64,000 nucleotides of DNA from Octopus vulgaris (taxonomy: Eukaryota): contig OX597818.1 of NCBI GenBank assembly GCA_951406725.2, positions 42,284,001-42,348,000 on the forward strand, in the 5' to 3' direction. A program made the position numbers and the translations under genes. Position 1 is the first letter of the stretch. Every line of letters starts with the position of its first letter. The notes under the pieces were generated by a model that worked only from the letters and a program-made list of their open reading frames with translations, was not told where the DNA came from and searched no databases. Below are positions 10,001 through 37,000 of the stretch, piece after piece.

Positions 10001-13000
10001 TCTGCCAAGATGAAAAGAACCTCTGCCAGATGAAAAGAACCTCTGCCAAGACCAGTTACACAACATCCATAAAAAGATGTGTCTCCAGTGAGGGTGATGC
10101 CATGCTACTTCACATCTTTGAAAAGGAATCTAAGCTCAATTCAGACTGAAGTCAAACTCTGGTTGAAGAGGGAGGCTACCAGAAGGCCATGTGTGTGGTA
10201 GCAGGATTTATCTCCTTGCCATACACTCTGAAGAGTCATGAGTAGTTGTCCAATAATTTCTACATCTTCACCAGCCCCAATTCCTGGCCTCTCAATTTCC
10301 CCATGATTGTAATCCCATGGGTTACTATATGTGGGATGCAGTTGAGAAAGCTACCAGCCACTCTGCCTGCAACACCAAGTCTGAGCTGGTAGCCAAGATC
10401 AAGGAGGTGTTCAAAGATCTTCACAGGGACACAGTAAGGAATGCATACACCAGGTTCTGTAGCTGTGAGGCTGTGATAAAAGTTGAGGCTGGCTATTTTA
10501 AGTTAATTACTATCACCCAGCCATAATGTAGTTGATGATTTTAGAGTTTTTAAAATACTTTTATTTTTGGATGAGATATCGTATCTTTTACCTTTGATGC
10601 AAACTGTCAAATTTAGCCCAAACACCTTGTACTTTCTGGTGTTCAGTTTTACATCACTGCATTCTGAGTTCAAATTTGTTTTAGACATAACTTTGATTTC
10701 CATCACTATGAAATTAATAAAAAGTGATAGATTTATTCAGAGGTGGATTTGACTTTTTACAGCCTTCATCCCTAAAAAAAAGTATGAATGACAGTAAATT
10801 CAAATAATTTTCATATATTTTCTTTTCCAGGTAATATCAGTTGTAATAGTGACAAAATGCTTTGTTCAGTATCATCACGAAAGTAAGATTGCTTCTGATT
10901 TCTATATTTTCATTATTTAAGATTCATAACCTACCAGTTTTTTTTTTTTATAATATCATTTATAAAGCAGAAGAAAATGAGAGTGAATTAGGTGAAAAGT
11001 TCAACTAATACCTCATATACGATGTTACTTCTCTCACCTGACCATCTTGCCAGCTGGGATGACTAGGTCAAGTACCAAGTACATATACTAGATCTTCCCA
11101 CATGTACTTTAGTATACCAGTTATTTTTGGTGAATGTTTTGCATTTCTAGGTTTCATCATATTTCTGCAGATGACTTGCTCCCAGGCACAACAGAATTTG
11201 TTGATATTCTGTAGTGCATTAAAAAAACTGTTGCAAATCCTCTTCTAACTTACTACTCCCCTCAATTTTGAGTAATGAAAACTTAAGGGTATTCATGAAC
11301 CTCCCAGCTAATCCATTGGATCGAGGATGATATGAAGGAGTCCTTACATGATTGATACCATTTTTCTTACAAAATGTGAATTCCGGAGAAGTGAATTGTG
11401 GGATGTTATCTGATACTAAGACATCTGGTAACCCAAATCTTGGAAAACTTGATGTAGCTTTTGTATTGTGGAGGAAGTTCCAAAACCGCAACTTGGTTCC
11501 AAAACAACACACTTAAAGTTCACCTACCAAATTCACCACCTTCATTCCTTTCAGCAATAAGATTTGGTTTTGTCCTATATTTCTTACTTTTGCAAATTAA
11601 TAAACTATTTGTTATTACCTCTCACTAAATACGCTCCTATGCAAGCTCCCTCAGCATCCTGCATATGGATGCCAATCACATCCATCATAGACACACGTGC
11701 GTGTATTATTTAAAGAAACAGAAACTGCAAATGCATCAGTAGAGACATGATGACTCAGTCTCCTTCAACTATACCAGGACATAATCCTTGCACATATCAC
11801 TAAAAGGGGAAAATGTCATCTCATGTAACACCTTTCTGTATTCATGTATGACACATCAATAAAAATCTCAGTCATTACAAATTATTAATCTATAATGTTA
11901 ACAAAACTGTATCTCAAAGACTGGGATACTTATCTGAAGCAACAAAATACCTCCACTGTGAAAGGGTTTTGACTCATAACAAAGCTCAGATGTAACTTAC
12001 AGCAGAATATTGTTCACTGATTTGGGACATTGTTGCTGCTACACTCTCAACGTCTTAGGCTGCATCCAATGAAAAAGGTTATCTGCTAATTAGTAAAAAT
12101 TAACCACCACCACCACCATTACTCTATAATCACAAGTAATAGAGAGTGGTTTCCTCTCTTCCTTTATTTACTTCTACCTCTAATACAGCTACTTATCCTC
12201 AGAAATCAAGCTGAGTACCATTCTTAACAAATCCTTATATATGCACCTGCCTCTTTTTCATTCATTGTATCTACTGTATTTAACACCTCTCAAACTATTC
12301 ACTAAAATGCAGTTCTTCACAATTTCCTATCTGCACACAGTTTTAATACTGGCACCAATAGTGCAACTTGTACAAATACATTATTTACATCACCATTCTT
12401 GGAGGACCTGAAAATTGACAAGTGCTGTAAATTCAGAATTCCTTTCACTAAATACAAAAGAAAATGTGCATTGTTAAAGTTAATTTCTAATATATACATG
12501 TAAAAAATATTATAATAGATGCATCCCAATTTCTTGGAAATGTGATGGAGAAGCTGACTGCCCTGATTCAGAAGATGAAAAGGATTGTGGTAAGTGCATT
12601 CATATAAAATTCAAAGTGACATTTATTGTAGAAAAATATGATCAGAGAAAATTTATCATAATTACAGGCATCATGAAAGAAATTGATTTCAGTTATATAA
12701 CAAGTGGATGCATCAACAAAAGCATTTAGTATTGTGGCAGAGAATAGCAGAAACATTTGGGAGCTAAACAAATGGTTTTAGAAATGTACTTTTACGTTCT
12801 AGGGGTCACTTTTGAAGTTTATAAAAAATACGTTTTTCATATATTTAAGGGACATTTTTATTCTGTCACTAAATTAATTAAACCCAAATAAATTAAAATT
12901 ATGTGCTACGGAAATGCTAATTACCATATTTGTCTAAATTTGTGTTCCTGAGATGGTATACATATGATTGTAGATCTTGGGTCAGCAACTCACATATTTT

Positions 13001-34000: not shown

Positions 34001-37000
34001 CCTTGAGGACATTACTCAGATTACTGACAGTGGCTCATGGGTGGATGTTGTCTACCTTGACTTTGCTAAGGCTTTCAACTCTGTGCCACACAAAAGGCTT
34101 ATGGTGAAACTCTCTGCAATGGGTGTGGGGGATGACCTTTTTAACTGGTTGAAATCCTTCATCCTCAGCCGAAAGGAGGTAGTCACAGTTCTAGGACAGC
34201 ACTCTACACCATATGAGATGTCATCGGGTGTACCACAGGGATCTGTCCTTGGCCCCCTCTTGTTTGTGGCATACATTAACGACATAGATGCCAATTTAAA
34301 GAATGCCACAGTATTGAAATATGCAGACGACATCAAGCTGTACCTTGAAATCAAGAGGACAGATCCTGATGTCTACAACTCTTTCCTGCAATCAGACCTA
34401 GACACAATGCAGCAATGGATCACAGACTGGCAACTGAAACTGGCTGTGGACAAGTGTACCACCATGCATTTTGGGAGAAAAAACCCTGCGTTCACATACT
34501 CCCTCCACAACACTGATATCAAGAAATCCTCTTGCGAGCGTGACCTAGGCATCACTGTCAGCAGTGATTTGCGTTGGTCAAAGCATATCTCTAAGATTGT
34601 CAGGAAGGCCGAGGGTGTCTTGGCATCACTCAGCAGGTCTTTTGTTAGCCGCTCTCCAGCCATCTATTTAAAACTGTATACAGCTATGGTACGACCACAC
34701 TTGGAATTCGCATCATCAGTTTGGAACCCCTATCTTGCACAGAACATTGACCTCCTGGAATCTGTCCAGAGACGTGCAACCAAACGCATACCCTCCATCA
34801 GACACCTACCATATTCTGAGCGCCTTGTTTCCCTGGGCATGGATTCACTGAAGCTCCGGCGTTTGGCGACGGACTTGGTAAACACCCACAAAGTTATCAA
34901 CCACCTCACCAACAACAACACTGAACACCTTTTTGATCTCCATGTGTCTAACACACGTGGACATGCCTACAAAGTCAGAAAACAATACAGCTCCCATGAC
35001 TTTCGGAAACATTTTTTCACGCTCAGAGTTGCTGAAGCATGGAATAAACTGCCTGCGTCAGTTGTTGACTGCCATGACACTGCATCTTTTAAGGCCCTCA
35101 TGCTTTCCGAAATCCGCCGAAACTTCACCTGATTATATATACACTTTAGATGAGTTGTAGTGCACCTGAGCACTGTACACAATTATTATTATTATTATTA
35201 TTATTATTATTAATCATTCGATGTATGGAAGCAGTACTCTAATGATGTGTGGTCGTTGTATGTATGTATGTATGTATGTATGTACACATATACATGGGTG
35301 TGTGCATGTGTGTGTGCATGTGTGTGTGTGCGTGTGTGTGTGTGTGTGCGTGTGTGTGTGTTTCTGTGCATGTATGTGTTTGTCTCAGTGAGTTTCTTTC
35401 TCTCATCATCCTCACCAACTGCAAACATCACAGGTGATGTCTCATGCTTGCAGTCAGCCACAAAATCACATCTGGGCTGTTCATTGTTTAACAAACTAGG
35501 AGTTTAGTAACTTGCTTGGAAAAAGGTGAGGGTTAACAACAGGAAAGGCATCAAGCTATGGAAAAATCTCTCTCAAAGAATCCTGTCTGATCCATGCAAA
35601 AAAGAAAAAATGGACTTTAAAATGAAAATGATGATCAATTGCAACTCTCACTTTCATGTTGTTGATTACTGATTCCTGATTAATGAAATAATTTACAGTA
35701 AGAAAGAAACCTGACACATTAAAAGCAAAAATATGAATCAGTTTTTAAGTAACCAATGAATTCTTACAAGCCAATGATATTTTGATGTTTACGAATATTT
35801 TAGTTTTCATTTTGCAATTTAATGTCTATCACATGGTTTTAGGTTCAGTCCCATTACAGGACACATTGAGCAATAGCCATAACCCAAACCAATGCCTTGT
35901 GAGTGGATTTGGTTGGTGGGTAGAAGCTCATTGCATTATAATATGTGTGTTTATGTGAATTTGTGTTTGTGTTTCTCTCTCCACTGACATTTGACAACCA
36001 GTGTTGGTTTGTTAATGTCCCTGAAATTTAGTGGCATAGCACAATCAACTGATAGAAATAGTATGAGATTTTAAAAATAAGAACTGGGGCCAATTTATTT
36101 GACTAAGCCCTTCAAACAGTACCCCAACATGACTGGAGCACTGCTGAAGGATTTAGTCAAATGACTGAAGCAAGTAAATGATAAAAGTTAAAAGATTTGT
36201 CTGACTATTTCAGATAGAGTTACAACTACACAAGCTCCAGTTACAACAACTCTTTCCCTGGACTGTCGAGTTAATGAAATGTATTGTACAGCCACAAAGA
36301 GGTAAGATAACTCATTTTTTCTTTCTTGTTCTATTAACCATTTTAATATTCATAAGCAATGAATATGTTTCAATAGTATGTTATAACGTAGTTTAGAGGA
36401 AAAACATAATTGTTATAATCTTATGAAAGGTGAACATATTAGCTGTGAGTGTAAAAGTGTGTCTGGTTTTTCATGCAATGTATTTTTCTCTTGATCACAT
36501 ACTAGAATGAATATTTCCTTTCATCAACTAGACAAAAATATTTCCTTCTCAAAAAGCAATAAATCAAAATACACATGCAAATATTGCTTAAGTTGATTTC
36601 TATATGAACAAAATTTCATTATAACAGCTGCATTTTACTGAGTTGGAAATGTGATGGACAAAATGACTGCCCTGATGGTGAAGATGAAAAAGATTGTGGT
36701 ATGTATAATAATTGAAATGATTTTAATTCAATGCAAGTGGCTATATTTAAATTTGAATATATGATTATAATAAGGTTGTCACAATCCTGTACGTGTGTAA
36801 AATAAATTAAACTGTATCATTTGTGAAAATAACCTACAGTTGATAATAAAGTTTCATCCCACTTCTGGTCAAGCTTTAAGGATATGTAAATATGACTAAT
36901 AAAGTATAGCTGAGATGTATCACATTTTCATTTAATTCCTAATAATTGACAGCTTGTCTGTTCAAGCATTTCTGAGGCACAAATTTTGCACTTTATATCT

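Follow-up and report, generated by a model that had tools for sequence, protein, structure and literature searches.

A 64,000-nucleotide stretch of the 2.8-Gb Octopus vulgaris genome (contig OX597818.1; G000:C5:42284001-42348000, forward strand; hereafter the window) carries part of a gene for a large protease-like protein with an array of LDLa modules. The reading that we favour, and consider probable, is that a two-exon LDLa unit has been tandemly duplicated inside a Ser-less duplicate of a Tequila/SVH-1-like gene, that its transcripts are spliced mostly in collinear order, and that the product is a secreted, catalytically dead, multivalent binder whose stalk varies by copy number. The whole gene spans ~C5:42.243-42.354 Mb, beyond both window ends, and the window exons match the annotated O. 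vulgaris proteins P0002 and P0009 at 100% identity over most exons. From the first SRCR domain on, the gene model has 42 exons, all with AG/GT ends, and 1680 codons with one terminal stop; two more upstream exons, outside the 42-exon model, carry the N-terminus. The domain order is a hydrophobic N-terminus (a predicted signal peptide), SRCR, C-type lectin, kringle, LDLa0, kringle, kringle, LDLa1-8, PAN-like, LDLa, SRCR, LDLa, SRCR and trypsin-like, which includes the core LDLa-PAN-LDLa-SRCR-LDLa-SRCR-trypsin.

Split LDLa modules and the growth of the array

The earlier note on this DNA had described eight LDLa modules, each encoded by an A and a B exon, followed by two ordinary single-exon LDLa, and both descriptions are confirmed:

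10831..10882, forward strand: exon A1, LDLa Cys1-2, phase 1-2
12519..12589, forward strand: exon B1, LDLa Cys3-6 and acidic motif, phase 2-1
16470..16521, forward strand: exon A2, phase 1-2
17584..17654, forward strand: exon B2, phase 2-1
19984..20113, forward strand: exon A3, Thr-rich spacer and Cys1-2, in the first copy of a unit found six times here and once in the active paralogue
20447..20517, forward strand: exon B3, phase 2-1
23583..23670, forward strand: exon A4, identical to A5
24003..24073, forward strand: exon B4, identical to B5 and B6
27169..27256, forward strand: exon A5, phase 1-2
27589..27659, forward strand: exon B5, phase 2-1
30688..30796, forward strand: exon A6, donor reads GTACGA
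31129..31199, forward strand: exon B6, phase 2-1
32488..32572, forward strand: exon A7, phase 1-2
33305..33378, forward strand: exon B7, acceptor displaced 3 nt upstream
36214..36301, forward strand: exon A8, phase 1-2
36628..36698, forward strand: exon B8, phase 2-1
41337..41447, forward strand: single-exon LDLa, phase 1-1
49449..49556, forward strand: single-exon LDLa, phase 1-1

All 16 A and B exons have AG/GT ends and their collinear translation is free of stops. The A exons (length modulo 3 of 1, phase 1-2) encode Cys1-2 and the B exons (length modulo 3 of 2, phase 2-1) encode Cys3-6, with the acidic Ca2+/ligand motif lying entirely within the B exons; each of the eight collinear modules has six Cys and the C-terminal acidic Ca2+-binding motif of LDLa (PF00057). 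In B7 the homologous acceptor AG is gone, and an AG 3 nt upstream preserves the frame at the cost of one additional residue, as in the Octopus sinensis proteins. The count of eight holds for the window; for the gene it is nine, with a further split module upstream at G000:C5:42275639-42276355. An internal intron is thus present in 9 of the 11 LDLa modules of the gene; a Pfam scan finds 11 LDLa stretches in P0002. This layout is specific to this gene family and unusual in this genome: none of 122 LDLa acidic motifs sampled at other LDLa-rich loci (40 stretches of 10 kb, 400 kb in all) is split, with Cys1-3 in frame in 121 of them and the remaining flagged one being intact with a longer loop, in a sample chosen around top-scoring intact hits (150 of 326 candidates scored) and so biased towards intact modules.

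The array is the product of tandem duplication at the DNA level. Units 3-6 are 96-99.8% identical, introns included; between units 4 and 5 there are 6-7 substitutions in 3.5 kb (99.8% identity) and between units 3 and 4 there are 20, whereas units 7 and 8 have A-B introns that diverge by 11-12% from those of the other units. A two-exon kringle unit of 6.3 kb has also been tandemly duplicated and is 98.9% identical to its neighbour just upstream of the window. The intron lies at an identical phase-2 site in all nine modules that precede the PAN-like domain here and in all five of the paralogue. The proposal in the earlier note that the array is expandable is borne out by these near-identical units and by the pre-PAN counts of relatives given below. 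Within units 3-6 the A core varies more than the adjacent intron (7 of 47 versus 8 of 332 sites; Fisher p 0.0009, for a region picked post hoc), and all seven A-core variants are non-synonymous. Copying from older units limited to the exon was considered as the sole cause of this variation and rejected, most of the seven variants being absent from units 7 and 8 and from the paralogue.

Two observations at the DNA level adjoin the array. Just 5' of A3, window positions 19679-19877 hold a copy of the sequence normally found after a B exon, here with the B exon itself absent, which is likely to be the breakpoint remnant of an unequal crossover. At the kringle duplication (window 1-6987), one O. 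vulgaris gene model has both copies and another skips one.

The protease domain, the active paralogue and other relatives

The trypsin-like domain (PF00089, E 1.6e-57) retains the catalytic His and Asp, but its catalytic Ser codon is GAT (Asp), versus AGC in the paralogue. The same Asp occupies this position in O. sinensis P0005 and Octopus bimaculoides P0004. One residue is missing from the activation segment, and the R-x-K-R site upstream of it is gone. With one triad residue replaced, the domain is by sequence a serine protease homologue, and the gene likely encodes an enzymatically dead pseudo-protease, since Asp has replaced the catalytic Ser. The earlier label of a Tequila/neurotrypsin-like protease therefore stands for the domain core, which is Tequila/SVH-1-like, and fails for the word protease. 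The remaining coding features are:

886..1004, forward strand: kringle 3, first exon, phase 1-0, within the 6.3-kb two-exon kringle unit
5406..5589, forward strand: kringle 3, second exon with Thr-rich spacer, phase 0-1
37864..39861, forward strand: PAN/apple-like domain by Cys pattern, exons 37864-37955 and 39717-39861
46404..48230, forward strand: SRCR, exons 46404-46554 and 48052-48230, phases 1-2/2-1 like A/B
51987..56468, forward strand: SRCR, exons 51987-52128 and 56239-56468
58922..59159, forward strand: protease exon T1, degenerate activation segment, catalytic His kept
60945..62886, forward strand: protease exons T2 (60945-61060) and T3 (62719-62886), catalytic Asp kept in T3
G000:C5:42349734-42349904, just outside the window: protease exon with the Ser to Asp change

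The PAN label rests on the Cys pattern and on PF00024 matches in bivalve homologues, Pfam being silent on P0001 and P0002; Pfam scans of the same two proteins give no chitin-binding modules. Introns at window positions 13500-14600, 53500-55700 and 57150-57950 hold decayed transposon-like sequence, which we take, by resemblance, to be mariner/Tc1-like and retroelement pol-like, and positions 37396-37594 and 8099-8638 are near-perfect intronic inverted repeat pairs of 36-38 bp, probably small non-autonomous elements.

An inverted paralogue lies ~135 kb off, at C5:42.02-42.11 Mb. It keeps the catalytic Ser, is labelled 'svh-1-like' in databases, and has one kringle and five LDLa modules, all interrupted where those of the window gene are; the unit that is sixfold in the window gene occurs in it once. 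In a tree limited to cephalopod sequences, the Ser-less copies of three Octopus species form one group (100/99 support). The number of pre-PAN LDLa modules is one in 12 of the 13 homologues examined from bivalves, gastropods and cuttlefish (zero in the other, a low-quality model), five in Argonauta P0056 and in the active Octopus proteins P0132 and P0133, seven in O. sinensis P0005, eight in O. sinensis P0007 and nine in the window gene; the Argonauta count of five holds, a stricter Cys pattern having overlooked one module. Eight split modules are thus not general among orthologues, the comparison that the earlier note had called for, and the array is lineage-specific. O. sinensis also has its units in another order than this genome, with A3 followed by a B4-type half, so both stalk length and A/B pairing already vary at the DNA level.

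These comparisons suggest a route in which a single ancestral pre-PAN module would have gained one intron, unequal crossing-over would then have raised the module number from one to five to 7-9, and a gene copy beside its active parent would have lost catalysis through the Ser to Asp change and an eroded activation segment.

The relatives show further peculiarities of their own. O. sinensis P0007 (LOC115211767) is a mosaic model in which the N-terminus and protease of the active paralogue flank a middle from the Ser-less copy, the result either of mis-assembly or of the two paralogues having recombined. In the active paralogue the first protease exon exists in two alternative versions (G000:C5:42038888-42039133 and 42030032-42030226, reverse strand), both of which encode an activation segment and a catalytic His of their own. 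In O. sinensis, isoform P0132 has one of them and P0136 the other, and cuttlefish P0137 and P0138 show both types; the bivalve models checked have one type and two gastropod models resemble the other. The two exons are possibly an old mutually exclusive pair that exchanges half the protease domain. Only the first type is present in the window gene. Compared with the window gene, exon T3 of the paralogue (G000:C5:42026076-42026246, reverse strand) carries a 1-nt insertion that shifts the frame in this assembly; O. sinensis P0132 is intact there, and the insertion is either an assembly error or a null allele.

Splicing, decay and assembly as sources of variation

It is quite probable that collinear splicing dominates and that the main variant, if there is one, skips whole A+B pairs. 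In units 3-8 the A-B introns are short (326-732 nt) and the B-A introns long (1288-3095 nt), which should favour handling of A+B as one pair. None of the seven O. sinensis RefSeq isoforms (three of this gene, four of the active gene) contains a chimeric A(i)-B(j) join, and the five modules of the active gene are readily distinguished in its four isoforms. No transcript-derived octopus protein showing the junctions was found among the best 120 of 189 matches to shorter proteins, which did include four octopus gene-model fragments. The O. vulgaris proteins P0002 and P0009 swap A4 for an intronic stretch near 20593-20643 without the Cys pair, likely an artefact of gene prediction.

Skipping of whole pairs, which the earlier note had allowed for, receives partial support. 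Of the three O. sinensis isoforms annotated for this gene, two, X2 and X3, are each short of one A+B pair (53 and 60 amino acids), and one O. vulgaris model, already mentioned with the kringle duplication, lacks one kringle pair. One of the two skipped junctions, however, is B7-A8, a collinear join both in this genome and in LOC115211767, and the other is similar to B5-A6 of this genome; because B7-A8 is collinear in both, the shorter isoforms may reflect reads from another allele or locus. A possible aid to skipping is an intronic hairpin (20911..21009, forward strand, with copies at 24467-24565 and 28053-28151; 27-bp arms, -41 kcal/mol, z -6.3) that sits in three B-A introns. It is the sole non-microsatellite inverted repeat common to several units, the inverted repeats of the array being mainly CA/TG microsatellites. 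Pairing of its arms between units would loop out whole A+B pairs, and PMC6071210 describes such a route for duplicated stem-loops, but the local hairpin should form first. Stalk variation made at the RNA level in this way, by competing pairings or otherwise, seems to us rather unlikely as the principal explanation, and it can coexist with a mostly collinear array that varies by copy number.

Several observations weigh against that preferred reading. The B acceptors have a pyrimidine fraction of 0.33-0.53, against 0.53-0.93 for the other 34 exons, and such purine-rich sites could favour mis-pairing. The O. bimaculoides models P0191 and P0194 carry unlike A halves on an identical B half, which could represent alternative splicing, an extra unit or a difference in modelling. 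The youngest duplicates (units 4/5 and kringles 2/3) could have been inflated by the assembly. Copy-number differences are seen between species and gene models, with one O. vulgaris genome, and not within a population. Finally, the ratio of non-synonymous to synonymous substitution rates (dN/dS) relative to the paralogue is 1.03 over 1061 codons, a value that fits relaxed constraint and a new function equally well; T3 was left out because the paralogue model ends there through the 1-nt insertion.

This ratio is what might be read as a decaying duplicate whose array grows neutrally under relaxed selection, as might the loss of catalytic and activation features and the pace of protein evolution: over 658 sites the Ser-less copy has 45 unique changes versus 14 in the active copy (p 7e-5, ~3 times faster), while the control between two active copies gives 9 versus 9 over 466 sites. 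Against decay, the 1680 codons are free of stops, where a simple neutral model, taking no account of gene conversion or of the more recent origin of the repeats, predicts ~9; 38 of 38 Cys are kept; splice sites are canonical at all 42 modelled exons; purifying selection acts on the B exons (pooled dN 0.059, dS 0.288); and the gene is retained in three species. We regard simple decay as quite improbable. We give as little credence to the view that some of the units were created in assembly, by haplotype or read duplication. The high identity of units 4/5 and of kringle units 2/3 invites it, as do O. sinensis models with two kringles and 7-8 modules and the seemingly mosaic LOC115211767. The copies bear distinct substitutions, however, expanded arrays also appear, independently, in proteins of both O. 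sinensis and O. bimaculoides, and an artefact would at most lower the nine modules to ~7.

The earlier note's main proposal, a combinatorial system in which A exons are regularly spliced to non-adjacent B exons to give chimeric LDLa modules, fares worse and appears highly improbable. Its premise is correct, in that every A exon can be joined in frame to any downstream B exon: each of the 36 possible forward A(i)-B(j) joins leaves the frame open, giving 24 distinct peptides of which 7 are collinear and 17 new. The weak B acceptors, the displaced B7 acceptor, the weak A6 donor, the faster A core and the P0191/P0194 pair can also be cited in its favour. Frame compatibility, however, follows from the duplication of any symmetric two-exon unit, and 360 of the 820 non-adjacent exon pairs in the gene are compatible anyway. 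None of the seven O. sinensis isoforms is chimeric; many chimeras would add little because B4-B6 are identical; and no docking/selector-like complementarity was found in the A-B introns at the threshold used, which short pairings would escape. Dscam has tandemly duplicated exons encoding half domains, and the octopus gene resembles it in this respect, but in Dscam clusters of alternatives lie between constant exons and are chosen by docking/selector pairing, whereas the octopus exons run ABAB with no cluster of alternatives and an open full collinear product, and the annotated proteins hold all pairs or all but one. The lesson is that split modules with compatible frames are weak evidence for combinatorial splicing.

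Known systems and significance

The closest parallel is primate apolipoprotein(a), by analogy and not by homology. LPA, according to PMC7613587, is a duplicate of the adjacent plasminogen gene in which the protease was inactivated and a two-exon kringle expanded, with exons that are 98-100% identical. Both systems have a duplicate near its active parent with a dead protease, and a two-exon module (KIV-2 in apolipoprotein(a)) tandemly expanded with homologous introns and near-identical exons. The octopus module differs in being an LDLa with a Thr-rich spacer, the kringles here being duplicated as well, from one to three; there are nine copies and not tens, the parent is Tequila/SVH-1-like and not plasminogen, and no lipoprotein link is known. 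The window gene thus appears, by this analogy, to work like apolipoprotein(a) without being a member of its family. A hedgehog parallel to apolipoprotein(a) is named in a reference title in PMC6337849. That an apolipoprotein(a)-like copy-variable stalk is here combined with regulated A(i)-B(j) shuffling of fast A onto conserved B half-exons, without Dscam-type clusters, is highly improbable.

The family resemblance is to Tequila/GRAAL and SVH-1. According to PMC11172050, Tenebrio Tequila has three LDLa, PAN, two SRCR and trypsin, an LDLa/PAN/SRCR/trypsin core in common with the octopus gene, which differs in lacking chitin-binding modules and the catalytic Ser, in having up to nine pre-PAN LDLa, and in an N-terminus of SRCR, C-type lectin and kringle; the likeness is one of domain make-up. 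Caenorhabditis elegans SVH-1 is described in PMC11305532 as kringle, PAN-like and protease, a make-up also present in the octopus gene. Like HGF/MST-1 and edited SVH-1, the window protein is a kringle/PAN protein of protease fold without a full triad. An HGF-like switch was nevertheless rejected: in SVH-1 growth-factor activity arises from a change of the His only and not of the Ser (PMC11305532), and the route is unsupported here because the octopus gene keeps its His and loses its Ser. We consider an HGF-like role improbable.

LDLa pockets are Ca2+-dependent. The product of the window gene would be a secreted, non-catalytic protein with a Thr-rich stalk, probably O-glycosylated, bearing 7-9 such pockets, and its avidity or reach may rise with module copy number. 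We tentatively suggest that, in haemolymph or mucus, it partners its active twin without catalysis of its own or acts as the twin's decoy, with the B-encoded acidic pockets as binding sites while the A lobe diversifies. Drosophila Tequila is plentiful in haemolymph and induced by infection (PMC11050137), and a skin mucus proteome (PMC11431876) mentions 'neurotrypsins'. Searches by accession and by domain terms, which did not cover subscription papers, found no literature on this gene.

The route by which a protease is duplicated, disabled and fitted with an expanded two-exon binding module is already known from primate apolipoprotein(a). Its occurrence in an invertebrate, from a different parent and with a different module, would show it to be recurrent, here with datable steps of one, five and then 7-9 modules. 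The locus also offers a test case for copy-number variation in a farmed species, with a pseudo-protease standing beside its active twin.

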